The notes: generated from the sequence alone by a model not told the origin. 57,584 nucleotides of DNA from an uncultured bacterium (GCA_964546145.1 CAZJIU010000003.1:1-57584); one strand, 5' to 3'. Positions 5,808 through 39,170 are shown, numbered from the stretch's first letter. Numbers and translations are program-made.

Positions 5808-7481
5808 TCAGGTCTTGATCCATTTTGGAGATTTTCTGGAACCTGTATTTTTAATCAAATCCTTTTTACGTAGTGAGGTCAATAGATTATGGATCAAAAT
5901 AGATTTCTTATCATCATTAAGAACTTCTGGCAATTTATTCATTAATAGTTGATTAATCTCTTCACGACTTACCGGTCCATGATGTTGAATAAGCTCGAGA
6001 ACTATGTCACGATAATATTTTCTTTCAAGTCCACGTTTACGAATATATTCTGCTTTTAATCCTGTTACTTTTGCTACCTTAGTTGAGATATAGATATTTG
6101 GATATCTTCCCTCTACTAATCCCGTCTTTTTCAGCTTTTTGTAAATATCATTTCTTATTTTTAAACCCTTTTGAACCTTATCTAAACTCATTACTGCCCA
6201 TAAATCTAAATCTGTTCTGGCCATCAGTAATCTGGAGTAATTCTCATTGACAATCGTCCCATGAATTGTAACTAATACTCTCGACGAATCCGATAAATCA
6301 TAGTCAGGCATTGGAAAACAACGCTCTTTTTGCGTCAGGAACATTTTCTTAATTCCGCCTCCCTGAGTATCGATCATATTAAAATTTACCATTGCCTTTA
6401 CAAGTAGTGTATTTCGATAGATTTCTTGAGGTGCATCTTGTTGAATTACCCGTTCAACATTTCCTGGAAGGAAGCTTCCAACGTTAGAAAACAACAATCG
6501 GGCAGGCATTTCTACAAGAATAATACGACCTTTTAATGAATAATCCTGATGAGCAATACAGTTATGAAGCGCTTCGCGTAAAACCCATTCATTATATTGC
6601 TGTATTTCTATAGGAAATAAGGTTCCCCCAGGTAATTCACGAATGGTCAAATTGCGAATTTTTAATAATACTCTATCGACATTAACAAGAAATGGCGGAT
6701 CAAAATGTTCATAATCCTTTTCATTATTCTTATCGTCCTTCAAAATCCAGGTGATTCTGGCAACTGCTGGAGAAATCAAGGTTGCTGATTCGGGCTTACC
6801 CAATAGCAATATCGCGGTGTTGGTAATTGCTCCTTGAATTGCCAAACTGGTCTTGTTTAAAAAAGTTGTGTCGCCCCAATTATCAACATCATTTGCCCTG
6901 TTCGGAAATTTTACTTTATGTTCGCTCCGGGCTTTATGAATTGCTTCTGGATCAAGGTCATTTAAAGTAGCATTCTCACATATTTGAGCTGACCAATCAA
7001 TCTGACGCGACCAAATTACACGCTCCTTATCAGGATGATTTCTTAGCTCTGTTTTCGATGAACCTATGCGGATATATGCTGTACCTTTGAATCTCACTGG
7101 CTGATTATAAGCTGAATGTATTTCAAAAAGAACGACTCTTTTATTCTCTGTAGTAAAAGTAAAAGGAGTAAATCCTATATTCGGTTGCAGATTTGTAGAT
7201 AACCACAGTAATAATGACTGATTACCTTTACCCTTCTCTTTATCAGAGTAAGGATCGAAACTAGTACCTACAATTTGATGTGCTTGGTCGTCTATACCAA
7301 AAACGAGGTAACCGTATGGCTTTCCTAGCAAGCATGCCGAGTTGGATAATGCTGATAAATATTTTCCGATCTCATGAGATTCATAGCGATTTGATTTGAA
7401 TTCAATCCACTCACTTTCATTAGGTTCCTGGCGCAAGCGATTTAACAATGCAACTAAATCTGTAGTTTCCATATTGTCCAC
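5808..7481 (-). CDS. AlbA_2 (Schlafen-like) DNA-binding domain protein with an HATPase_c_4-like domain and a C-terminal wHTH (COG2865-type 'RecG-like transcriptional regulator')
   Basis: 557 aa. N-terminal ESEWIEFKSN...YLVFGIDD (AlbA_2 pattern). LREALHNCIAHQDYS (HATPase_c_4 pattern). The gene and its flanks are visibly more AT-rich than the neighbours. Confidence 0.6.
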   Translation of the reverse strand: MDNMETTDLVALLNRLRQEPNESEWIEFKSNRYESHEIGKYLSALSNSACLLGKPYGYLVFGIDDQAHQIVGTSFDPYSDKEKGKGNQSLLLWLSTNLQPNIGFTPFTFTTENKRVVLFEIHSAYNQPVRFKGTAYIRIGSSKTELRNHPDKERVIWSRQIDWSAQICENATLNDLDPEAIHKARSEHKVKFPNRANDVDNWGDTTFLNKTSLAIQGAITNTAILLLGKPESATLISPAVARITWILKDDKNNEKDYEHFDPPFLVNVDRVLLKIRNLTIRELPGGTLFPIEIQQYNEWVLREALHNCIAHQDYSLKGRIILVEMPARLLFSNVGSFLPGNVERVIQQDAPQEIYRNTLLVKAMVNFNMIDTQGGGIKKMFLTQKERCFPMPDYDLSDSSRVLVTIHGTIVNENYSRLLMARTDLDLWAVMSLDKVQKGLKIRNDIYKKLKKTGLVEGRYPNIYISTKVAKVTGLKAEYIRKRGLERKYYRDIVLELIQHHGPVSREEINQLLMNKLPEVLNDDKKSILIHNLLTSLRKKDLIKNTGSRKSPKWIKT

Positions 7482-7534: not shown

Positions 7535-8119
7535 CTACTGATAAAGTCTTTGTGTTATGATATATTCTTCCACCGCAGGTGGAACAAGCTCGCTAATATT
7601 GTCACCTCTAAAAACATTTGCTCGAATTATCGAAGATGAAATATCTATTAATGGACTATTTATAAAGAATACTTTCTCCAGAAATTCCTGCTTGACTGCT
7701 GACAGATTAAATCCCGGTCGCCGGGCGACTATCACATGAGCTTCAGCTAATATCTTTTCCGGTTGGTTCCAAGTGTGTAATTCCAGCAAACTGTCGGCTC
7801 CAATTAAAAAATAAAGCTCCTCACGCTTCAGGTTTCGTGCCTGCTTGATTGCCCGAATTGTATCAATTGAATAAGAGACGCCTTTGCGCTGAGTTTCCAT
7901 CTCCGAAATTTCAAAACCAGCTTTCCCCACTATTGCCAGTTTCAGCATTGCCAGGCGATCGGCAGTTGAACTGAGGGAGCGGCGCTGTTTATGAGGTGGA
8001 ATAAAAGCCGGAATAAATAGCACCGTGTCAATTCGCAGCTGCTCCCGGACACTTTCGGCAATCCTGATATGTCCGTTGTGCGGCGGATCGAAAGTCCCGC
8101 CGAAAAGACAGATACTCAT
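7535..8119 (-). CDS. nadD: Nicotinate-nucleotide adenylyltransferase
   Basis: 194 aa. GGTFDPPHNGH motif. Its start overlaps the bamD stop (ATGA at 8116-8119). Confidence 0.9.
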   Translation of the reverse strand: MSICLFGGTFDPPHNGHIRIAESVREQLRIDTVLFIPAFIPPHKQRRSLSSTADRLAMLKLAIVGKAGFEISEMETQRKGVSYSIDTIRAIKQARNLKREELYFLIGADSLLELHTWNQPEKILAEAHVIVARRPGFNLSAVKQEFLEKVFFINSPLIDISSSIIRANVFRGDNISELVPPAVEEYIITQRLYQ

Positions 8120-8913
8120 TGTTGAGCTTTCTTCTTTTCTCGCTCAATCTTGCGCAGCTCACGTTCATACAAACGCTGCAAATGATCCAAACGCTTTTGA
8201 ATCTCGGGACTATTCTTTTGTTTCTTGATCTCAGCTACTAGGGCAAAATATTGATCAAACTGACGCAGCTTAATATAACAATGCGCTTTCTCTAATTTGG
8301 CCGGTATTACCCACTCGGTATCGTAAAATTCTTCCAGCATTTTATCCAAATAGAGAATCGCCGGTTCCCACTCCTCCAGCTTGCGGTATAAGCGCCCACT
8401 TTCATAAACCTTACGCGCCAGTTTGTTGCGAATCTCTGTGATTTTACTCTCAGCCTCCGGACACCATTTACTATTCGGATAAGATTCGATGAACTCCTGA
8501 AAACTCTGGAGTGCTCTCAACGAACTGTTCTGATCCAGCGGATATTTCGGAGATTGTTTAAAATACGAAAGCGCAATCTTAAAATAAGCTTCCTCAACAA
8601 ACGGGCTATAATTATAGCGTTCGGTTAATTGTTGATACTCGGAAACGGCCAGGAGATATTCCTTCCGGTTGAAATAACACTCGGCGATATAATACTGCGC
8701 ATCATCAGCCAAATCCCCGCCGGGACTGTTAAGAATCACGAGATTGAAGTTATCCAGTGCAACTTCCCACTTCTTCTTCTGGAACGCCGCTTCACCCCGT
8801 TGAAAATAGAGATAAGGATCCAGACCGAGCTTTGGTTTTTTACCCGCACACCCAAGCCATAATAAACTGGTTATTAATCCCAAAGCCCAAATTAGTCTCC
8901 TCCGTCTCATCAA
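8116..8913 (-). CDS. bamD: Outer membrane protein assembly factor BamD-like TPR lipoprotein
   Basis: 265 aa. Lipobox LLWLGC. TPR-like repeats with the ADDAQYYIAECYF / YPNSKW pattern typical of BamD/YfiO. Confidence 0.7.
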   Translation of the reverse strand: MMRRRRLIWALGLITSLLWLGCAGKKPKLGLDPYLYFQRGEAAFQKKKWEVALDNFNLVILNSPGGDLADDAQYYIAECYFNRKEYLLAVSEYQQLTERYNYSPFVEEAYFKIALSYFKQSPKYPLDQNSSLRALQSFQEFIESYPNSKWCPEAESKITEIRNKLARKVYESGRLYRKLEEWEPAILYLDKMLEEFYDTEWVIPAKLEKAHCYIKLRQFDQYFALVAEIKKQKNSPEIQKRLDHLQRLYERELRKIEREKKKAQQ

Positions 8914-8960: not shown

Positions 8961-9851
8961 TCAAAATGCCAGCGTTAAGGATATGCCTCGAATTGGATTT
9001 TTATAGCGAATATCCGTCAGTAAGCCCACGTGCCAGGAGACTTCCTGTTTTGGTTCGGAGGTATATTGTTTGGCAGCAATCTGGGCATGAAATGCACTGA
9101 AAAGGTGATTGAACATAATCACCGTGGCAAAATTGGTTGCCATCTTCAGCGCGTCATTGGAATCTTTGCGCTGATGCAAATAATGATTGCGGTCAGGAGT
9201 GATATAGACGGTATCACTTACCGTGCCCCCGCCATGAGTCACAAGATAGTCGTCCCAGCCACAGGCAAACTGATTATACTTGCCGATATTTTCATAAAAA
9301 TCGCGGGTTTTAACTGGTTCAATGAGACCGCCATCATTTAGTAAGGAATCATAAACTCCGTAAAAATCTTTATCAGTCATAAACTCCTGTTCGTTATCAT
9401 CCTTCTGATAAGTGATGTAAAGTGGATGAGTATGTTCTGGTCCACATAATTCGTTAGTGTCACTATACTTCATCCACTCATCAAAATCCCAGTGCTTATC
9501 GGCATATCTAATATATTTCTTTTCCAGATCATCGCCGGAATTCTTGTTGCTAAAATACATCAACCAGGAAAATATCTCGACACTACTAAATGCCAGAGCA
9601 CGCCATTTTGCGTGAGCATAGAATTCACCAGCACCGGGAAATATCGCCGAGAGTAAAAAGGCTTTGCCCGGTGATTTCTCATAACTGAATTCAAACGAAT
9701 CTTCGGGAACCGCATTAAATTTAAGACTACTTTCCAACATGCTGCGATCCGAATTAAGCAGCGCCTCGTTGGCAAGATATAGCTGACCATAGACCGCTGC
9801 CGGAAAAAGCATTCCGATCAGGATTGACATTAGAAAAAGTTTCCTTTTCAT
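8961..9851 (-). CDS. Hypothetical exported/membrane protein. The start is chosen at MKRKLF, preceded by GGAGG.
   Basis: Signal peptide. Hydrophobic segment with SAIFPGAGEFYA. The C-terminus ends ...ISLTLAF. No family recognised. The track ORF extends to 9872. Confidence 0.5.
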   Translation of the reverse strand: MKRKLFLMSILIGMLFPAAVYGQLYLANEALLNSDRSMLESSLKFNAVPEDSFEFSYEKSPGKAFLLSAIFPGAGEFYAHAKWRALAFSSVEIFSWLMYFSNKNSGDDLEKKYIRYADKHWDFDEWMKYSDTNELCGPEHTHPLYITYQKDDNEQEFMTDKDFYGVYDSLLNDGGLIEPVKTRDFYENIGKYNQFACGWDDYLVTHGGGTVSDTVYITPDRNHYLHQRKDSNDALKMATNFATVIMFNHLFSAFHAQIAAKQYTSEPKQEVSWHVGLLTDIRYKNPIRGISLTLAF

Positions 9852-9861
9852 GGTGCCTCCT

Positions 9862-12800
9862 CTATAATCCAAAAAGAATTGTTAAATAACTGCGCCACTC
9901 TTTACCATATTGATGGGCTATTTCCTGACTGTCCACCACCGTAAATTCGTCTAATCCGTACACAAAATCCAGACTAATTGCAGTGGGGTAGGCATAAAAT
10001 GAGAAACCGCTGAGTCGCAGCTGAATTCCCACATCCCGCTTGAAATCTGCGGTTATGGCTTTTACTATCCCGCCCGCATTCAGGGTAAATTCAGACCAGT
10101 TCATCCCCGGATAACCCTTGACTTTATTCCAGGCATTGCCGGCTTCAACATAAGTCGCCAGGAAAGCATTCTGCAGATCGAAGGACAACAATCGAATCTC
10201 CTTTTCCCGAAATAACGGAAATCTCCAGGTATAGTGCAGGCTAAACAGGTTGCGACCTTCGATACTGTAAAAAGGATAGCCGCGTAGTCCCGGCAATCCC
10301 CCGGCAAAAAAATTGAAAAAAGAATCAAGATCATACTTGGATATCCAACCAACCTGCCATCTAAAAGCTCCTACCAGTCGTTTGACCAGCGGATATTTGT
10401 GGTAGTACTCGCCTTCATGCTCGATTCTCCAGTAGTAATTGTTACGGAAATTAGTCTCCAGTGTGCCAAAATCCTCATTTATCCCAAAATCCTTAATAAA
10501 TTTATCATAATTCCGAAAAATATTAGTAGTCAAAATAAGCCCGTTATCGGGATTTGTTTCCTGGTTCACGATAGTCATCATTTTCTTAAATTGCCAGCTC
10601 AGTTTGAAGTCGAGTCCGCGGTAGTAATCGTAGGTAAAACCATTAGAATAAATTCCGGCTTCCCGAATTCTCTCATCAGTAGAAGTGCGATATTTTGAAT
10701 AAATAGCGTCCAGCCTAAATTGGTTGACACCCGTCATCGGAAGCGAAATACCACCAACCGCTTCGGTCAGGTAAAATGTATAATCCATCTCAAGTGGCCA
10801 GCCGTTATAGGTCGTCTCAAGATTTAATACACTGCGGGTGATATTATAAAACTCCAGATAGATTGTCGGATACCACTGATGATATTCCAATAGCGCCACC
10901 AAATCCCGGTCTTTCAGCCGATTAATTGATGCCCCACCAAGAATATTAAACCGTTCCAGAATCTCCGACGAATAAAAATAGAAACCTGGTTTCAGTGTCC
11001 CGTAATCCAGCATAATCCGCGGTAAAAAAAACATCCTCGAAAACTGGTCGCGGTATTTCACCGGTTCGACCGTATCAATCTGCGCCACGGTCATCATCCC
11101 GGGAATATTTTCTTGATAATTTGAATAGTGCGCCAATTCAGGCCCAATTGGCTTCGGTTCGGCGATCCTGGCAATCGCAAAGGCGCTGTTTTCAAATAAA
11201 GCATAGAGTAGCTCGCCTTTGTCATTCACCGCGGGCATGAAAGCCCCGCCGGTGACATTGGTTACGAGCTCTGTCTCACCGGTTATCAGAGACTTGCGAT
11301 AGATATTAAAAATCCCGGTCTTATCACAGGCAAAATACAGCCACTTTCCATCCGGACTGAAATAGGGGTGGCGGGAATCGTACACTGCATTGTCCAAATT
11401 TTCGATCTGATCGTTATTTAAATGATAGAGAGCAATATCTCTGCCGTGATCTATCAGATAATCGAATGCAATCGCTTTACCATCAGGTGACCAATTAGCG
11501 GTGAAAATTTCCAGGCCATCGGTATAATGGGTCAACTGCCGCGAATTTAGCGAATCCAGCTCCATCACGAAAAGGTTCGAGGTCCCATCCCGTCCGGAAA
11601 TGTAGGCAAGCTGTTTGCCATCGGGTGAGATTGCCGGATTATAAGCCCGTTCCCATTTCGTAATCTGCTTCTCGCGCCTTTTCTGAAGATCATAACAGTA
11701 AATATCATAATAAACATGCCCCTGTCGGTCAGGTTTGGAAACCTTTGAATAATAAATAAATCTGCCGTCCGACGAGACCGAGGTCCGTGAAGAGACCCGC
11801 GGTTGGATCATTTTACTCTTTTTCGTTCTCAAATCATAAACATATAAGCCAGTCTGGGAAAAATAGTCGCGACCTTTGTTGGAAAGCAGATAGACCAATG
11901 AGTCACCGCCCCATTCAGGGTAATACTGGGTTGTTGCATCGCTTATCAGGACCTCGCCGGTAACTTCATTTTGCCGAATAGTTGCGGTTAATTTCCCATA
12001 GTTATTTTCCAGCTGTTGCACCCATTCATGATGCAACTGCTTGCCGGAAATTCCGGTGGCCTTCTTTAAGGCTGAGTTGATCGAAAATTCAAAAGGTTGA
12101 GCGAGGACGGCGGCGAGATTGGAAATTACCTCTGGCCCAAAACATTCGGCGAGATACCTGACAAAAGCATAGCCCTGATTATAAACCGACTCGTTGCCAA
12201 TTCCCCGCTTCCCGAAAGAAGCCATCTGAGCTAAAGTCAGAATTTTACCATTCAGAGTCCGGTCACGCAGCAGCATATCGCGGTGTGAATCCCACAAATC
12301 GTTGGTTGTCCCGGGATACATATATTGCGCCATACCCTCCGCCAGCCACATGGGAATAACCACCCCGGGAATGGGATAGGAGCTGATTACCCGTGGATAG
12401 CCGTAGACTACGTCTTCGCGCTTCTCATCTTCATAATCAAGCACCTGAAAATAACCACCCGGTACCGACAGACCGAATTTCATCGCTTTCTGGAGTGACA
12501 CAATGTGGGTAAATTCATGGGTAATGACATCCAGCAACCAGTGATGATTGCCGCGCAAGGGGTAATCCAGCGGGGTCGCCCAGATTTCAATCTTGTTATC
12601 GTAATAATAGGCTGCGCCGTTGGAAATATCGCCGATATCCTTGATAACCAAATCGGTCTTTTGTTTGGGTTTATAATTATAAAACGAAGTAACCGGACCG
12701 TAGATAGCCTCAGCAATCTCGGCGCTCTTCCAGGCCGTCCATTCGGCTCCTTGATGATAATGGATTTCAAAGTGAGCCGTTTCAAAACTCAGCCATTGCA

Positions 12801-12915
12801 ATTCAGGATGATTGTAAGTCGCAAACTGAGCGGATAGATTAAGCGGAAGCCAAATCCAGAGAAAAGCGAGAGTGAAAACATAAGTATTTTTAAAACCTGA
12901 AAATCTATAAGTCAC
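9862..12915 (-). CDS. Exported multidomain protein: HExxH zincin (peptidase-MA-like) + PD40/TolB-type beta-propeller blades + C-terminal Omp85/BamA-type beta-barrel
   Basis: 1017 aa. GTG start overlaps the upstream stop (TAGTG). Signal peptide ...LNLSAQ. FETAHFEIHYH and VITHEFTHIV. Three SPDGK blades. FFAGGLPGLRGYPFYSIEG resembles the Omp85 loop-6 RGF/Y motif. Confidence 0.6.
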   Translation of the reverse strand: MTYRFSGFKNTYVFTLAFLWIWLPLNLSAQFATYNHPELQWLSFETAHFEIHYHQGAEWTAWKSAEIAEAIYGPVTSFYNYKPKQKTDLVIKDIGDISNGAAYYYDNKIEIWATPLDYPLRGNHHWLLDVITHEFTHIVSLQKAMKFGLSVPGGYFQVLDYEDEKREDVVYGYPRVISSYPIPGVVIPMWLAEGMAQYMYPGTTNDLWDSHRDMLLRDRTLNGKILTLAQMASFGKRGIGNESVYNQGYAFVRYLAECFGPEVISNLAAVLAQPFEFSINSALKKATGISGKQLHHEWVQQLENNYGKLTATIRQNEVTGEVLISDATTQYYPEWGGDSLVYLLSNKGRDYFSQTGLYVYDLRTKKSKMIQPRVSSRTSVSSDGRFIYYSKVSKPDRQGHVYYDIYCYDLQKRREKQITKWERAYNPAISPDGKQLAYISGRDGTSNLFVMELDSLNSRQLTHYTDGLEIFTANWSPDGKAIAFDYLIDHGRDIALYHLNNDQIENLDNAVYDSRHPYFSPDGKWLYFACDKTGIFNIYRKSLITGETELVTNVTGGAFMPAVNDKGELLYALFENSAFAIARIAEPKPIGPELAHYSNYQENIPGMMTVAQIDTVEPVKYRDQFSRMFFLPRIMLDYGTLKPGFYFYSSEILERFNILGGASINRLKDRDLVALLEYHQWYPTIYLEFYNITRSVLNLETTYNGWPLEMDYTFYLTEAVGGISLPMTGVNQFRLDAIYSKYRTSTDERIREAGIYSNGFTYDYYRGLDFKLSWQFKKMMTIVNQETNPDNGLILTTNIFRNYDKFIKDFGINEDFGTLETNFRNNYYWRIEHEGEYYHKYPLVKRLVGAFRWQVGWISKYDLDSFFNFFAGGLPGLRGYPFYSIEGRNLFSLHYTWRFPLFREKEIRLLSFDLQNAFLATYVEAGNAWNKVKGYPGMNWSEFTLNAGGIVKAITADFKRDVGIQLRLSGFSFYAYPTAISLDFVYGLDEFTVVDSQEIAHQYGKEWRSYLTILFGL

Positions 12916-15900
12916 TAATGAATAACCATAATTTTGATAATTTTGCTTTCGGTTTTGCTGCCGGAGGTGGCTTTAACCACCGCAAAATAAACGCCATTGG
13001 CGACGCCGCCGACGCTCCACTCGATCTCATTATAATCACTTACGAGGGGGTGAGAATCCTTAAATGAAGTAATAAAATCTCCGGCGAGATCGTAGATATT
13101 GATCTCAATATTGCAGTCGGCATTCGGATAATAGCGAATTGCCGTGCGGTCGTTTTTCGTCGGATTGGGCCAGTTGAAGGTTTTCTTCTTATTAAGCAAA
13201 CCGTTGCCCGTTACCATACTGCTCTGCGATTTTTTAGAATAGAAGAAACTTTGGCAAGGATTACCGCTGCTGCAATACCAGGCATCCGGCGACAATGGTT
13301 GATCGGTGAGATACAAACCGATCAGCCGGTTACCGTCCCGATTCGCTGTCAGCAAAAACGTTCCCTTCGCATTCTCCATCAGGACTGATTGATCACTCTG
13401 GCTATTCGGCAAGGCGCGTGGATAGCCAGCAATCAAACGACCGCGATAGTTATAAGCCAAAATCCCGATATCTTCCAAAGTAACGACAATGTCTAAAATC
13501 TGATCGCCGTCAATATCACTGGTGAGCAGGTGTGGAGCAAAGGACTTGTCAGAATGCTGATTGGGAACCGAGATCGGGAAATTGCTCTCCAGAACCAGGG
13601 TTTCATTAAAGGCAAAAATTTCACGCTCGTTTTTCGCCAGGATCTCTACTCGCCCGTCACCGTCAATATCGCCAAATGCCAGTGTCGAATCGAAATTACT
13701 ATTGTAATAGTAACTTACCGGCGTCGCACTCCGAAAATCCCGGATAAGATGGAGCTGATCAGGATAATTAATAACTAAATCTATCTGATCGTTTTCATCA
13801 AGGTAAGCCAATCCAATTACCGCTGAGCCCATTTTTAGATCGGGAACCAAAACTTCAGTTTCGAGTGTGGTAGGTTTAATCTGTACTATCGAACCGGCGT
13901 GGGTGTCGCCTAATAAAACCGTTCCGTCGCTAACAAACTGGTAAATCGGAAATTGGAGATTTTGACTCTCAACTGCATTTGAATTCGGCAGATATTTTAC
14001 CAGGAAATAATTATTTGACGCCTCGTCGAGCATGCAAAAGAATAGCTCATTTTGAAAAGTGCAGATATTCGAAATCAAGTGCGTTCCGGGAACAATCTGG
14101 CCCACATCCGAATTGATTGTCCCATCTCCATTAATCGAATATTTATATATGAACAAAGCATCTTTCTCGAATGACGACTTTGTGATACAAAATAGATAAT
14201 CGCTGCCATTCTGGCAAGAAAGTGTAAAATGTTCACCATAACCAAGAGTGCGGGACATAATCAAATCACCAGATTCGTTGAAAGTATAGTATTCATATAT
14301 TCCATATTTTTCGGTAGTATCCTCAGCTATTATTTGTGTTGCCCATTTATCAGTAACTACTAGTTCATTGTAGCTGTCGGTCGAATCGAAATTCACCGGA
14401 AATAATTGTAAGTTCGAAATCATGCTGGAGTGTGTTCGGAATCCTTCAAGATAGTAGCTGTCTTTAATTCGAAAACTCATCACCGAATCGGCCGGTCCGA
14501 TACTATCTACGGCGATGCCGGTAAATGCTCCGTCATAACTGCGGGCAGAAGGATTAGTGTAATCCGTGAAGCCGACCCGTTTGAGGTCATCCTGCGAGTA
14601 ATCGGGATTCATATCCCAAAAGCCCTCGTTCCCTGCAAACCAGGGATCAAAATACCAGCCGTTATCCACATTGGCGCCAATCAGCTGCGATTCATAACCC
14701 AGGTCCTGCGCACCATCGCCTTCCTCTAGATCCACGCCCCGATGATTACGGTCTGCATTCACCCGATTTTGGGCAATATTGGCGTCAATGATCGATTGAT
14801 CAATGTGCCAGATCAACAAACCCGAACCAGGCAAACCCACATCGTAGCGCGGTACCCCAAGGAATATGCCTGCAGTTGAAAATTCAGCTCCGATCGAATC
14901 GAAAATCAGTGGTAATAATGCCGGCCAATCCTTCTCGCCATTATCAACATAAATCTTATATTGAATACTATCAAGATAAACTCCAGGACGAACGTGATTA
15001 TAACGATTTTCTACCAGGAAGTACTCATTGTCATTAATCGGGATGCGCCAGAGGGTTGTATCGGAACCGGACTCGGCATGCGGCAGCTTGACATTCTGAT
15101 AACCATTAGCAAAAACGGGCATATCCCAGCCCATAAATTCGCGCTCCCAGGCAGACGGGAAAGACGGTACCAATCCATTCAGATTCGCCGATCCCTGATC
15201 CATTAGCCCAAATCTCCCGATGCCTGTTCTGCCGGTTTCGGTATCGTAGAGTCCGGGCAGCCCCAGAAAGTAGCCCATCATTAACGCAAAGGTGCCATTG
15301 AGTCCGATCTGATAATCACAGGGAATTTCGGCTCCACCGAAAACATCTTCCCAATTGGGATAGAAAAGGTGATTCTGTGACTCTGGCAAGATAATTCCGC
15401 GATCCACCGGAAGATAATCTGCAGGCAAACCAACCGCGGCATAATAATTTACCAAATCGCCGGGATTCAGATAGGCGGAGGGAATATCATAAGGCGTCGG
15501 ATCAAGAAACAACTCGAAATCCTGACCGACCCCGGCATGAAAAACGACAACAAGATGATACTTACTGAAATCAATATCAGAATCCTCAGTCGCCAGATGA
15601 ACTGCCTCAACGAATAGTTCTGTCAGGCGAATGTCAATCGAATCCTTTTCCAGGAAAGGATGATAGTATGCCATTTGATGCGGCAATTGATAGACAGCTG
15701 AGTTATCGACAGGAAAAACCTCTGATTGCAGGGTATCAATCACGACCTTGCCCCGAGAAGCATGTCGGTAAAAATTAGCTAATGCCTTCAAATGATCTTT
15801 GAAGTAGGCATTATTATGCGGAGCCGGATCTACAATTGGAAAATTATCACACGGCAAACTGGCTGAGGTGAGAAATTGACCATCGCCGGTAGTCACCGGA

Positions 15901-16076
15901 TCATCATCCGGTTGGAAAGCAACCCGCAAGGCGCAGATCCGGATTGGATTGGGGATTGTAAAAGTATTTCTGATTTCTGATTGAATTGGTCGTAATATTG
16001 GCGCGACAACCCGCTGGGTTTTACTGAATGCAAGAGCGCAAACTGGGAGCAAAAATAGGATTAATTGTCGTTTCAT
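12915..16076 (-). CDS. T9SS cargo: M6 (immune inhibitor A)-like domain with a degenerate zinc site + FG-GAP/VCBS repeats + T9SS C-terminal sorting domain
   Basis: 1053 aa with a signal peptide. GTFALMMGYFLGLPGLYD sits where M6 enzymes carry HExxHxxGxxD. YFLVENRYNH, GLLIWHID and VDLEEGDGAQDL are M6-like. DIDGDGRVEIL and DIDGDQILDIV are FG-GAP. The tail NWPNP...IYDLAGDFI...GVYFAVVKA...IKIMVIH is CTD-like. Confidence 0.65.
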   Translation of the reverse strand: MKRQLILFLLPVCALAFSKTQRVVAPILRPIQSEIRNTFTIPNPIRICALRVAFQPDDDPVTTGDGQFLTSASLPCDNFPIVDPAPHNNAYFKDHLKALANFYRHASRGKVVIDTLQSEVFPVDNSAVYQLPHQMAYYHPFLEKDSIDIRLTELFVEAVHLATEDSDIDFSKYHLVVVFHAGVGQDFELFLDPTPYDIPSAYLNPGDLVNYYAAVGLPADYLPVDRGIILPESQNHLFYPNWEDVFGGAEIPCDYQIGLNGTFALMMGYFLGLPGLYDTETGRTGIGRFGLMDQGSANLNGLVPSFPSAWEREFMGWDMPVFANGYQNVKLPHAESGSDTTLWRIPINDNEYFLVENRYNHVRPGVYLDSIQYKIYVDNGEKDWPALLPLIFDSIGAEFSTAGIFLGVPRYDVGLPGSGLLIWHIDQSIIDANIAQNRVNADRNHRGVDLEEGDGAQDLGYESQLIGANVDNGWYFDPWFAGNEGFWDMNPDYSQDDLKRVGFTDYTNPSARSYDGAFTGIAVDSIGPADSVMSFRIKDSYYLEGFRTHSSMISNLQLFPVNFDSTDSYNELVVTDKWATQIIAEDTTEKYGIYEYYTFNESGDLIMSRTLGYGEHFTLSCQNGSDYLFCITKSSFEKDALFIYKYSINGDGTINSDVGQIVPGTHLISNICTFQNELFFCMLDEASNNYFLVKYLPNSNAVESQNLQFPIYQFVSDGTVLLGDTHAGSIVQIKPTTLETEVLVPDLKMGSAVIGLAYLDENDQIDLVINYPDQLHLIRDFRSATPVSYYYNSNFDSTLAFGDIDGDGRVEILAKNEREIFAFNETLVLESNFPISVPNQHSDKSFAPHLLTSDIDGDQILDIVVTLEDIGILAYNYRGRLIAGYPRALPNSQSDQSVLMENAKGTFLLTANRDGNRLIGLYLTDQPLSPDAWYCSSGNPCQSFFYSKKSQSSMVTGNGLLNKKKTFNWPNPTKNDRTAIRYYPNADCNIEINIYDLAGDFITSFKDSHPLVSDYNEIEWSVGGVANGVYFAVVKATSGSKTESKIIKIMVIH

Positions 16077-16137: not shown

Positions 16138-17400
16138 CTAAAATTTGATATCCAATGAAAAAATCATAGTATTCGCTCGGGGGTGTCCCGTATTGCCAGC
16201 AGTATAGCCAAAATCAAAGCCTAATCCGGCATAGCGTAAGCCAGCACCAAAGGTCGGCACTGGCCATTTATTGTCTACCAGAATCTTACCGGTTTTATCA
16301 TATAAAAACCCCATTCGAATGGCAAACAGATCGGAATACCAGTATTCGACCCCCAGGTTATGCACTAATTTATCAAATTCCTTTTGAAGCGATCCATCGT
16401 TTGTATCACCATCCGTATCGGCTTTATTGCCCCACTTGTTCTTGCCACCACCGACATCCTTGCCGATTCCATCCGCATCGGAATCGTGTAACAGCAGCCA
16501 GTCATCTACCCAGGAGGTAAAAATGCCAAAATACCAATCGTCAGTATAAGCCGTTTCCCGTTGACCATCCTTATTGTATTCACCAGCAGCACCAACATAA
16601 TGACCATTTTCATCATAATGTCCAATCCGCTCATCGCCATCAATATCCCGGTTCGGATAAGCAGCCACCAGTAATTTATTAACATCATAGGCAATCGTAA
16701 CGCGGTTGTATTCACCACCAAAAGTATAATTAAAACCCAATTTCAGGTTGGTCGGCATCGGATCCGCCTGAGCCACATCAATAAAAGCAATCTTGGGTCC
16801 GATGTTAGCTATTGTAGCCCCAAGGGTTAAATTTTTCAAGAGGAACTGGCGTTTGATATAACCCACATCAAAGGCAAAATTGGTCGAGGTACCTTTTCCA
16901 AGTTCGGCACCAGCTCCCTGATCAGTTAGATGCTGGTGAACCATTTTCACGCTTATACCGATGCTCGAAGTGCGGGTCAAAGCCGTCCCGTAAGATCCGG
17001 TAATTGCCATCATATAAGAAGCAAAAGTTCCTAAGTAGTTGGCATATTCATCCATCCGGTCCTGTTCACCAAGATTCAGCAGGATAATGTGACCACCAAC
17101 AGTGCCAACATTTTTAATAAAGTGCCGGTAGCCAAGAAAATCATAATAGAGGTCGCTGGCTAAATTGGGCAGCCAATTTACATGATTCAAAGCCAATTCA
17201 CGACCTCTCATAAAACCTAATCCAGCCGGATTCCAGTAGCTGGCGAAGGCATCGTCAGCCAGCGCAGCTCCTGCCTCACCCATGCCGCAGGCACGCGCTC
17301 CGGGATTAATCAGCAGCCAGATAGCTCCAGCTTCACTCTGGGCTAACAGAGATCCAACAGATATTGTTAACATCAAAAATATCGCAGAGATTTTTTTCAT
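16138..17400 (-). CDS. PorV/PorQ-family-like outer-membrane beta-barrel with Asp-rich (thrombospondin type-3-like) Ca-binding inserts
   Basis: 420 aa. Signal peptide ending LLAQ. GARACGMGEAGAALADDAFASYWNPAGLGF N-terminal signature. DIDGDERIG, DSDADGIG and DTDGDTNDG. C-terminal ...FSLDIKF. AGGAGG lies upstream of the ATG. Confidence 0.6.
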   Translation of the reverse strand: MKKISAIFLMLTISVGSLLAQSEAGAIWLLINPGARACGMGEAGAALADDAFASYWNPAGLGFMRGRELALNHVNWLPNLASDLYYDFLGYRHFIKNVGTVGGHIILLNLGEQDRMDEYANYLGTFASYMMAITGSYGTALTRTSSIGISVKMVHQHLTDQGAGAELGKGTSTNFAFDVGYIKRQFLLKNLTLGATIANIGPKIAFIDVAQADPMPTNLKLGFNYTFGGEYNRVTIAYDVNKLLVAAYPNRDIDGDERIGHYDENGHYVGAAGEYNKDGQRETAYTDDWYFGIFTSWVDDWLLLHDSDADGIGKDVGGGKNKWGNKADTDGDTNDGSLQKEFDKLVHNLGVEYWYSDLFAIRMGFLYDKTGKILVDNKWPVPTFGAGLRYAGLGFDFGYTAGNTGHPRANTMIFSLDIKF

Positions 17401-17414
17401 TGATTCCTCCTGAG

Positions 17415-17448
17415 AACAAAAAACCGAATTATAAATCGAATCCGGTTT
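17415..17448 (-). terminator. Rho-independent terminator between the Trm112-like ORF and the PorV-like gene
   Basis: On the minus strand: AAACCGGATT-cgatttat-AATTCGGTTT (10 bp including one G-U), followed by a T-run. Confidence 0.6.
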
Positions 17449-37670: not shown

Positions 37671-39170
37671 CTAACTTGGAACTGAGAGTAGAGCATCAAT
37701 AAATTCAGCCAGTTCAAACTCAACCAGATCGCCGAGCTGCTCACCGACTCCAAGATAGCGAATGGGAATATTCATTTTTTGGTGAATAGCCAAAACTGCC
37801 CCGCCTTTGGCGGTACCATCCAGCTTGGTCAAGATGATTCCGGTTACACCAATCGAATTCATGAACTCCTGCGCTTGAGCGATGCCGTTCTGACCGGTAT
37901 TGCCATCCAGCACCAGCCAGATTTCGTGCGGTGCCGCGGGAATCAGCTTGCCGATTACCCGTTTGATTTTACCTAACTCTGCCATCAGATTCGATTTAGT
38001 GTGTAGTCGGCCAGCGGTATCAATTAAAACAATATCATGACCCTTTGCTTGCGCCGATTTGATGGCATCGAACACCACAGATGATGGATCCTTGCCTTGA
38101 GGATTGCCCACGAAATCGGCACCGGTTCGTTCCGCCCAGATTTTCAACTGGTCATAGGCAGCTGCTCGAAAAGTATCCGCAGCAACCATCAAAACCTGTT
38201 TACCTTCAGCTATATAACGATGAGCCAATTTGGCGATACTGGTCGTCTTGCCGGTACCATTGACACCAATAATTAAGATAATCCATGGCTTGGAGTGACT
38301 CGAAAAAACCGGGGTGCCTTGATGAATTAGAGCTTTCATCTCAGCTTTTAAAATATCATTTAGATTGTCGGCCTCTTTACGATCTAATAGTCGGAGTCGG
38401 TCAATTAAACTCTCCGTCAGTTCCACACCCATATCCGCAGCGAGGAGAGTCTCCTCGATCGCTGTCAACATATCCTGCTCAATCCGAAAATATTTACCCA
38501 CTAACGGCAACCGTGCGGCAATGCCAGTCCCGGTTTTCTGCAAACCCTGAGAAAGCCGATTTTCCTGGCCCGGAACCGCCATTTTCTTTTTTGCTGCAAT
38601 AATCTGCTTGATAAAAGTAATGATATATTGCACCCAGGATATAAATAGGAGAGCGATGGAAGTCCACATGATCGGATTAATCCATCGCCCCAGAGTATTA
38701 GAATAGATAAACGCCAGCACCGTTGCCGTGGTAAAATAGATTGAGACCTTACTGGTCAAATTCGCATAGGGAGTAATCTTGCAGTTATTCATCAGATAAA
38801 CACTAAACAGAGCAATTGTCAGGTCTCTGACAGCCAGGATAATAAAATAAAAGATCGGCATCCGATCGGTAAAAATGAGAAACAACATTACACTAAAAAT
38901 TACGACCTTATCCGCAAAAGGATCCAGAACCTTGCCTAGCTCAGTAATCTCATGGCTGACCCGCGCCAGCCAACCATCCAACATATCAGAAGCAATGGCA
39001 ATAATGATAAAAATTAATGCGATTTTGCCTCGGCCGGCACGCAGGAAGTACAAAATCGGCAGGGTCAAGAAAACCCGCAAAATTGATATCATATTCGAAA
39101 GAGTCACAACCCGATCAGGGTTCATTTCCTCATACTTGCGTCGGACAATATTCTGCTTCACTATTCCCAT
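37671..39170 (-). CDS. ftsY: Fusion protein: N-terminal CDP-alcohol phosphatidyltransferase (PgsA-like, aa 1-190) + SRP receptor FtsY N/G domains (aa ~197-499)
   Basis: One uninterrupted 499-aa frame. DMLDGWLARVSHEITELGKVLDPFADKV is a complete DGxxARx8Gx3Dx3D motif. IGVNGTGKTTSIAKLA, DTAGRL and TKLDGTAKGG are the FtsY GTPase motifs. An in-frame ATG sits at 38582. Confidence 0.8.
   Translation of the reverse strand: MGIVKQNIVRRKYEEMNPDRVVTLSNMISILRVFLTLPILYFLRAGRGKIALIFIIIAIASDMLDGWLARVSHEITELGKVLDPFADKVVIFSVMLFLIFTDRMPIFYFIILAVRDLTIALFSVYLMNNCKITPYANLTSKVSIYFTTATVLAFIYSNTLGRWINPIMWTSIALLFISWVQYIITFIKQIIAAKKKMAVPGQENRLSQGLQKTGTGIAARLPLVGKYFRIEQDMLTAIEETLLAADMGVELTESLIDRLRLLDRKEADNLNDILKAEMKALIHQGTPVFSSHSKPWIILIIGVNGTGKTTSIAKLAHRYIAEGKQVLMVAADTFRAAAYDQLKIWAERTGADFVGNPQGKDPSSVVFDAIKSAQAKGHDIVLIDTAGRLHTKSNLMAELGKIKRVIGKLIPAAPHEIWLVLDGNTGQNGIAQAQEFMNSIGVTGIILTKLDGTAKGGAVLAIHQKMNIPIRYLGVGEQLGDLVEFELAEFIDALLSVPS

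Follow-up and report, generated by a model that had tools for sequence, protein, structure and literature searches.

A predicted metalloprotease with a POTRA-less Omp85 barrel, encoded in a conserved type IX secretion-linked gene cassette of an uncultured bacterium

Identification of the ZPO gene and its homologues

We examined a stretch of 57,584 nt from an uncultured bacterium (GCA_964546145.1, CAZJIU010000003.1:1-57584), referred to here as the window, and identified on its minus strand an open reading frame (ORF) of 1017 aa plus a stop codon, which starts with GTG according to the ORF list and which is abbreviated here as ZPO, for zincin-propeller-Omp85 (Table 1). Its product is composed, in this order, of a signal peptide, a gluzincin, a six-bladed TolB-like PD40 propeller, a linker of 43 aa and a 16-stranded Omp85 barrel. 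The gene belongs to a same-strand run which comprises, in the order of transcription, a PorV-like gene, a gene for an M6-like inactivated metalloprotease (M6i), ZPO, a DUF5683-like gene, the gene for BamD and a NadD-type gene. An earlier note on this DNA, made from the sequence alone, had described the ORF as a zincin and PD40 propeller fused to an Omp85-type barrel with no recognisable POTRA domain; the ORF and all the motifs it had listed were recovered, each in its place, by direct reading, and the order of the three domains was borne out by hidden Markov model (HMM) scans, an AlphaFold2 (AF2) model and a Foldseek search with the barrel.

Table 1 Features of the ZPO locus, in coordinates of the window
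Feature	Coordinates	Strand	Evidence
Cytidylyltransferase-like (NadD-type) gene	7535..8119	-	Pfam CTP_transf_like 4.1e-27
BamD (YfiO), lineage-specific neighbour	8116..8913	-	Pfam YfiO 1.6e-24; TIGR03302 1.9e-40
DUF5683-like exported protein (predicted), downstream partner	8961..9851	-	Pfam DUF5683 5e-5, below cut-off
ZPO (zincin-propeller-Omp85), whole coding sequence	9862..12915	-	ORF list; identical public protein P0001
16-stranded Omp85-type beta-barrel, aa 629-1017, ending in ILFGL	9865..11031	-	Pfam, two models, Foldseek
Strand-13 motif Y-V-E-A-G-N-A-W, aa 922-929, probable counterpart of Omp85 FxDxG	10129..10152	-	Alignment
Loop 6, aa 859-888, F-F-x-F-F-A-G-G-x-P-G-L-R-G-Y-P	10252..10341	-	AF2 position, conservation
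Linker, aa 586-628 (43 aa), no POTRA	11032..11160	-	AF2/DSSP and Pfam
Six-bladed TolB-like PD40 beta-propeller, aa ~320-585	11161..11958	-	PD40 and TolB HMMs, Foldseek, DSSP
Gluzincin (Peptidase MA-like), aa ~34-315	11971..12816	-	Peptidase_MA_2 and flagellinolysin HMM matches
E193 in W-[LF]-A-E-G, presumed third zinc ligand	12337..12339	-	Invariant 85/85
HExxH zinc-binding/catalytic motif, H133 E134 F T H137 (aa 133-137)	12505..12519	-	Invariant 85/85
Predicted signal peptide, aa 1-29 (LPLNLSA, then QF)	12829..12915	-	Read from sequence
M6i, 1053-aa M6-like (InhA-like) inactivated metalloprotease with type IX secretion C-terminal domain	12915..16076	-	NF052323, Por_Secre_tail
PorV/PorQ-family outer-membrane barrel, first cassette gene	16138..17400	-	Pfam PorV 2.3e-25
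Terminator-like hairpin between nrdR and the PorV-like gene	17421..17448	-	10-bp stem then T-run, consensus match alone

In a protein database, ZPO had more than 3700 significant homologues, the closest named ones being Marinimicrobia/Neomarinimicrobiota, and a scan of species-representative genomes gave at least 567 ZPO loci. In public databases these proteins bear unspecific names ('biopolymer transporter Tol', 'PD40 domain-containing', 'peptidase MA family metallohydrolase'), and so did 120 proteins among the matches listed for a search seeded from a Caldithrix metagenome-assembled genome (MAG), whose organism entries were of MAGs or uncultured organisms or were empty. All counts of gene context given below use the best 80 of the at least 567 loci, which are full-length relatives with 37-93% identity from Marinimicrobia/Fidelibacterota, KSB1, Calditrichota, LCP-89, Ignavibacteriales and Cytophagia/Bacteroidetes MAGs; neighbours were counted by tblastn of the window neighbours against these loci, and the denominators are the loci with enough flanking sequence. 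Residue conservation was read from an alignment of 85 sequences with 37-100% identity.

Domain architecture of ZPO

The full-length protein was modelled with AF2 on 42 homologues (mean predicted local distance difference test (pLDDT) score 87.6, predicted template modelling (pTM) score 0.85) and secondary structure was assigned by DSSP. At the N-terminus, aa 6-27 formed a low-confidence helix which corresponds to the predicted signal peptide, also noticed before, and the consensus of the ZPO homologues begins with AQxxYNHPEL, supporting the boundary of this peptide.

The signal peptide is followed by an alpha/beta zincin domain, which was matched by the NCBIfam flagellinolysin HExxH model (E = 3.3e-8) and for which precomputed PF13485 matches were present in most ZPO homologues. 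The HExxH motif, which the earlier note had reported as intact, is carried on a long helix (aa 126-144), and H133, E134 and H137 were invariant in 85/85 sequences from at least six lineages and in 42/42 of a further alignment. Together with a downstream Glu, E193, they give the gluzincin signature, E193 being the residue which we take to be the third zinc ligand from the M1-type WLxEG of known gluzincins; Y245 was likewise invariant in all 85 cross-phylum homologues. Since the active-site residues are invariant, the zincin is most likely under selection as an active enzyme and, with HExxH, E193 and Y245 kept at 37-100% identity, is predicted to be catalytically competent.

The propeller was detected by Pfam (PD40, E = 4.8e-19; DPPIV_N, E = 8.5e-10) and by the NCBIfam TolB model, which covers this part of ZPO alone (E = 6e-39), while Tricorn_N, Tricorn_2nd and DPPIV_N were found among the precomputed propeller matches. 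The three SPDGK-type repeats that had been noticed before lie at about aa 427-523, and the full propeller has six blades, formed by 23-24 strands. TolB from the PDB was matched both by sequence (9e-12) and at the top of the Foldseek list obtained with the full-length model (1e-11). We rejected ZPO as a TolB orthologue, as TIGR02800 gave 134 bits against a cut-off of 343 and matched at profile positions 168-351, which is the propeller alone.

In the Foldseek search with the full-length model, most matches were propellers of TolB and of S9 peptidases, and nothing was learned of the barrel or the zincin. Thus, the barrel was modelled separately from aa 596-1017 (model A2, pLDDT 72.8). All 50 PDB matches listed for A2 belong to the Omp85 superfamily (TamA, BamA, Sam50 and Toc75), with E-values of 2e-8 to 4e-6 and template modelling (TM) scores of 0.4-0.6, the best being TamA 8US2 (E = 2e-8). 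In both the full-length and the barrel-only models, 16 transmembrane strands were counted, those of the full-length model from aa 629 to 1015, so that the C-terminal region does model as the 16-stranded Omp85 barrel on which the earlier note had staked its proposal. The sequence alone barely links this barrel to Omp85: Pfam Omp85 (PF01103) passed marginally at aa 732-968 (E = 9.4e-6, 25.8 bits against a cut-off of 24), precomputed PF01103 matches were present in a minority of the homologues, and the sole match of the A2 profile among PDB sequences was the loop-6 region of TamA 4N74, at a weak E of 0.56. The last residue was F, L or Y in 83/85 homologues.

The C-terminal motif that had been likened to loop 6 of BamA, TamA and TpsB, FFAGGLPGLRGYPFYSIEG (aa 869-887, nt 10255-10311), lies within a 30-residue RGY loop which joins strands 11 and 12, in the same place as loop 6 of BamA and TamA, and aligns to the TamA loop-6 'FFAGGdrsIRGY'. 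It contains G-L-R-G-Y at aa 876-880, and G872, G876, G879 and Y880 were invariant in 85/85 sequences. For the catalytic and loop-6 residues, such invariance in sequences down to 37% identity is much more than chance would give. At position 878 (nt 10282-10284), the loop-6 Arg was found as R in 37, K in 43 and Q in 5 homologues. In strand 13, G926 was invariant in 85/85, and the Asp position (aa 924) was Q in 47, D in 19 and E in 16. With the lid-lock motif defined as in PMC11358297, the pair is relaxed in the ZPO family, K occurring with Q in 31 sequences and R with D in 17; the pairing of residues 878 and 924 may reflect co-variation.

A POTRA domain has about 75 aa in a beta-alpha-alpha-beta-beta fold. 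The linker between propeller and barrel had one 4-residue helix as its only secondary structure in the full-length model, and no POTRA family of Pfam matched ZPO at E<=1; the lack of a POTRA domain at this place, as claimed before, is concluded from both observations. The pLDDT of the linker was 78-90 when the N-terminal domains were included and below 50 in the barrel-only model, and this order in the presence of the N-terminal domains weakly suggests that the linker packs on them and is not threaded through the pore.

The architecture had been regarded as possibly unrecognised, which did not hold. Heinz & Lithgow 2014 (Front Microbiol 5:370; PMC4104836) recognised ten subfamilies within the Omp85/TpsB superfamily; the one named 'WD40-like' was defined with PF07676 and PF01103 profiles (Table S2 there). 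About 100 of its members are catalogued with a BamA/TamA barrel, a TolB propeller and a 'best aminopeptidase hit' (1Z5H, 4KXD, 4AR1 and 3QNF, which are M1/M9 zincins), with a POTRA match recorded for none (Table S3 there), and they occur in Caldithrix, Ignavibacterium, Melioribacter, Rhodothermus, Salinibacter, Cytophagales, Cloacimonas, Vibrio, Anaeromyxobacter and Geobacter. ZPO, with a PD40/TolB-like propeller before an Omp85 barrel, an N-terminal zincin and no POTRA, is by these domain criteria a member of this subfamily. The earlier note had named an already characterised family as an outcome against it; the family is indeed catalogued, but it is not functionally characterised, being described as uncharacterised with 'divergent WD40 and peptidase domains' (PMC11358297) and as an intriguing uncharacterised target (Hanson et al. 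2024; PMC11116518).

A conserved four-gene cassette around ZPO

The first gene of the run belongs to the PorV family, as it scored 241.6 bits with NCBIfam PorV_fam (cut-off 90) and 183.8 bits with the PorV equivalog model (cut-off 250, not reached). The second, M6i, matched NCBIfam NF052323, 'T9SS-dependent M6-like inactivated metalloprotease', where T9SS is the type IX secretion system, with E = 6e-161 and 537.6 bits, under the cut-off of 600. In M6i the HExxH is replaced by a pseudo-active site, MMGYF (nt 15267-15281), and the position was substituted in all 63 alignable loci (MMGYF, MIGFA, LMGSQ etc.); thus a constantly dead M6i, as predicted from these residues, stands beside a constantly intact ZPO zincin. 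DUF5683 was also found as an unmarked precomputed match in another locus (L003). The DUF5683-like protein has a predicted signal peptide and no further hydrophobic helix, ends with W or F in 69/72 orthologues and carries the conserved family motifs S..PG.GQ.Y, YYENIGKYDQF..GWDD and MFNH..SA; it is probably an exported or outer-membrane protein.

The GTG start of ZPO shares bases with the TAG stop of M6i as TAGTG, an overlap of one base. At the other end, the mechanical ORF call of the DUF5683-like gene (8961-9872) starts at a TTG overlapping ZPO, but translation probably begins at the ATG at 9851, which has AGGAGG (9856-9861) before it, so that the ZPO stop is followed by AGGAGG-N4-ATG with a gap of 10 nt. 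The 5' limit of the transcription unit probably lies at the hairpin upstream of the PorV-like gene (Table 1). Promoters of the Fibrobacteres-Chlorobi-Bacteroidetes (FCB) group differ from the sigma-70 consensus, and a scan for sigma-70 promoters was uninformative, with many consensus matches.

M6i was directly upstream of ZPO in 55/56 loci, a PorV-like gene was present in 54/56 (in addition to one locus with a displaced copy, L015), and the DUF5683-like gene was directly downstream in 72/73. The loci with the cassette come from Marinimicrobia/Fidelibacterota, KSB1, Calditrichota, LCP-89, Ignavibacteriales and Bacteroidota MAGs, and the genes outside it vary between these lineages. As the flanks vary while four genes stay, the conserved unit consists of the PorV-like gene, M6i, ZPO and the DUF5683-like gene, and this cassette, predicted to be translationally coupled, is conserved across phyla.

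The only interruption of the cassette among the 80 loci was in L015 (6955-9001, Marinimicrobia-type), where about 2 kb are inserted between M6i and ZPO. Another locus, L078, carries a paralogue of ZPO, and its neighbours are tatC, thioredoxin, an ArsA-type ATPase and an orotidine monophosphate decarboxylase/rhomboid fusion.

ZPO does lie two genes upstream of bamD in the window, as the earlier note had pointed out, and the note had offered from this adjacency a periplasmic proteolytic or quality-control module attached to an Omp85 insertase. ZPO would then be a BepA-like protease fused to the insertase and would act, together with BamD, upon nascent outer-membrane proteins (OMPs), and the presence of bamD in the same apparent operon (adjoining in 47/68 loci), the apparently retained Omp85 lid-lock motifs and the precedent of BepA on the machinery of beta-barrel assembly (BAM; PMC13478230) all favour it. 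However, bamD adjoined in 0/21 loci of KSB1, Calditrichota, LCP-89, Ignavibacteria and Bacteroidota type, which keep the other three partners; the adjacency is Marinimicrobia-specific, a lineage-specific accident, and the conserved partners point to a T9SS-linked module and not to a BAM-linked one. Moreover, BamA is the essential OMP insertase and BamD docks on its POTRA5, whereas ZPO has no POTRA. The 10 larger window ORFs that were scanned include no canonical BamA (the remaining window ORFs are of 557 aa or less), and none was detected by tblastn of Escherichia coli BamA (EcBamA) against the window and 84 loci, where the matches had E>=0.059 at best and were mostly ZPO loop-6 regions. In the cryo-EM study of BAM purified from Flavobacterium johnsoniae, the subunits were BamA, D, G, H, M and P, and a zincin-Omp85 protein was not among them (PMC12611786). 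On this synteny we rejected the adjacency to bamD as what defines the function of ZPO, and a role in quality control at BAM is unlikely.

Orientation and proposed function

Loop 6 of Omp85 proteins is extracellular and folds into the lumen of the barrel. In the AF2 model, the RGY loop is the sixth outward connection, therefore the start of strand 1 and the linker would be on the periplasmic side. In PlpD, the patatin (enzyme) domain is exclusively periplasmic (PMC11116518). Strand parity and this precedent together favour an enzyme which faces the periplasm and is anchored by the barrel, so that we infer a periplasmic orientation for the N-terminal domains of ZPO.

This weakens the type-V-like self-export that had also been offered before, by which the barrel would translocate its own zincin and propeller to the surface and ZPO would be an extracellular protease, perhaps paired with M6i. 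Given its C-terminal T9SS sorting domain, M6i presumably resides on the surface, and an enzyme and a pseudoenzyme would pair more naturally in one compartment; besides, Marinimicrobia are regarded as degraders of extracellular protein. Yet by strand parity the linker would be periplasmic, its 43 aa hold no pore-spanning helix or extended segment, a POTRA is absent, and the passenger would be a folded zincin and propeller of about 590 aa. The PlpD paradigm, on which self-export was modelled, has itself been overturned by the exclusively periplasmic enzyme domain (PMC11116518), and we consider export of this kind improbable for ZPO.

We thus favour, with a probability of roughly 0.55, the reading that ZPO is a periplasmic metalloprotease which is anchored in the outer membrane and works in an envelope module linked to the T9SS. 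ZPO would be exported by Sec and its barrel inserted in a BAM-dependent manner, and the barrel would hold the gluzincin and the six-bladed propeller on the periplasmic face. The propeller, on the model of TolB, tricorn and the S9 peptidases, may bind a partner, or may gate unfolded polypeptide and hand it to the zincin. By analogy with PorU-PorV and PorZ-PorQ, ZPO could physically associate with the PorV-like barrel, the surface-tethered M6i and the DUF5683-like protein, and would be the proteolytic, periplasm-facing subunit of a module which processes or quality-controls envelope or T9SS cargo proteins; it would be neither a self-exporting type-V protease nor a BAM insertase.

Several points weigh against this reading, the main one being that M6i on the surface and the zincin in the periplasm would be on opposite sides of the membrane, which leaves their coupling unexplained. 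The orientation is predicted from strand parity and precedent, and synteny is no proof of a physical complex. As to the zincin, its match to Pfam Peptidase_MA_2 (E = 2.4e-6, 27.9 bits) was under the cut-off of 32.4 bits, and a profile of the domain (A3) gave no meaningful match to a solved zincin among PDB sequences; in the L078 paralogue the same Pfam family scored 37.4 bits, over the cut-off. This paralogue (L078:8899-12228, 1109 aa, 38% identity) has none of the cassette partners, which shows that the subfamily exists outside the T9SS-linked context too. The Vibrio, Anaeromyxobacter and Geobacter groups are not known to bear a T9SS. Since the subfamily is present in such Proteobacteria (PMC4104836) and in L078, the family as a whole is not T9SS-dependent.

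More tentatively, the four genes might encode an undescribed T9SS-associated outer-membrane complex of the FCB group, in which the PorV paralogue would tether the dead M6i on the cell surface, an Omp85 barrel would hold the propeller-gated zincin right below it and the DUF5683-like protein would be a fourth subunit, the whole acting as a trans-membrane device for proteolysis, sorting or quality control of type IX cargo or of other envelope proteins; the orphan WD40-like subfamily would thereby receive its first functional assignment. Least probable of all is a stand-alone outer-membrane housekeeping or nutrient peptidase, with the propeller as an oligopeptide filter as in tricorn and S9 peptidases and with unrelated neighbours, for although the Tricorn_N, Tricorn_2nd and DPPIV_N matches, the lone paralogue in the unrelated neighbourhood of L078 and the Proteobacterial members noted above, which are not known to have a T9SS, speak for it, about 98% of loci across several phyla preserve the order of the four genes despite changing flanks and the cassette genes overlap or abut, which would be difficult to account for if they were not functionally coupled.

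Omp85 proteins are the universal outer-membrane-building machines, and their enzyme-bearing subfamilies without POTRA are still uncharacterised. The cassette yields a testable hypothesis for one branch of the orphan WD40-like subfamily and names candidate partners. If ZPO is indeed a periplasmic metalloprotease of a T9SS-linked module, it would follow PlpD as a further case of a periplasmic enzyme anchored in the membrane by a re-used Omp85 scaffold, and type IX secretion, in phyla that abound in the environment, would gain a new accessory module.

Other genes in the window

Two other genes of the window, both on the minus strand, were also noticed. The ORF at 37671-39170 (499 aa) has a CDP-alcohol phosphatidyltransferase domain at aa 23-175 (E = 1e-25) and an SRP54_N/SRP54 GTPase of the FtsY/SRP54 type (E = 6.5e-76), and resembles an unusual fusion between an enzyme of membrane lipid synthesis and the SRP receptor. 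The gene at 5808-7481 (557 aa), with Schlafen AlbA_2 and HATPase_c_4 domains, lies between the NadD-like gene and lepA; because these two are adjacent in the related contigs L001 and L002, it looks like a strain-specific insertion.

Comparison with known systems

With the WD40-like subfamily, ZPO shares the barrel (BamA 4K3B or TamA 4C00 by Phyre2), the TolB propeller (2W8B/2IVZ), the N-terminal zincin (1Z5H, 4KXD, 4AR1) and lineages of the FCB group (Caldithrix, Ignavibacterium, Melioribacter, Rhodothermus, Cytophagales and Cloacimonas). The main text of that paper, however, treats the WD40 part alone, as 'reminiscent of a BamA-BamB fusion', leaves the peptidase to a supplementary table, and reports no function, topology or gene context; members from Marinimicrobia and the cassette with PorV, M6i and DUF5683 are not described there. 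What is new here is the Marinimicrobia member and the four-gene T9SS-linked cassette, not found described in the literature searched. The same literature gave no functional study of DUF5683, of T9SS with Omp85, TolB and PorV, or of Omp85 with a propeller and a zincin.

PlpD (type Vd) resembles ZPO in that an enzyme precedes a 16-stranded Omp85 barrel and is periplasmic (PMC11116518), as inferred for ZPO. It differs in having a patatin lipase and one POTRA, where ZPO has a zincin and a propeller and no POTRA; no Pfam match to patatin was found in ZPO, which thus lacks both hallmarks of type Vd (patatin and POTRA). BamA and TamA share with ZPO the 16-stranded barrel and the loop-6 (V/I/L)RG(F/Y), and the strand-13 motif of ZPO, with its invariant Gly, may correspond to their FxDxG. 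In contrast, ZPO lacks the POTRA of BamA, TamA and TpsB and so falls outside the classical Omp85 definition, its sequence similarity to BamA and TamA is marginal (Pfam 25.8 bits; tblastn of EcBamA E>=0.059), and in its family Lys or Gln frequently takes the place of the loop-6 Arg, and Gln or Glu that of the strand-13 Asp.

TolB, the best structural and sequence match to the propeller of ZPO, has the same six-bladed PD40 fold; ZPO, unlike TolB, has no N-terminal TolA-binding domain and is fused to a protease and a barrel. A weak NCBIfam match of ZPO to the propeller of PorE (T9SS) was also found. BepA on BAM is likewise a periplasmic zinc protease at an Omp85 barrel (PMC13478230). BepA, however, is a separate M48/TPR protein held non-covalently on BAM, whereas the zincin of ZPO is of MA type and covalently fused, and the conserved partners of ZPO are T9SS-related and not BAM subunits.

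No Omp85-anchored zincin was found described as a T9SS component in the literature searched. In the T9SS, PorV or PorQ tethers surface proteins. The C-terminal-domain protein of the cassette is an M6-like pseudoprotease to which no PorU model matched, which sets it apart from PorU-PorV and PorZ-PorQ, whereas it shares with both pairs the coupling of a PorV/PorQ-family barrel with a T9SS C-terminal-domain protein.

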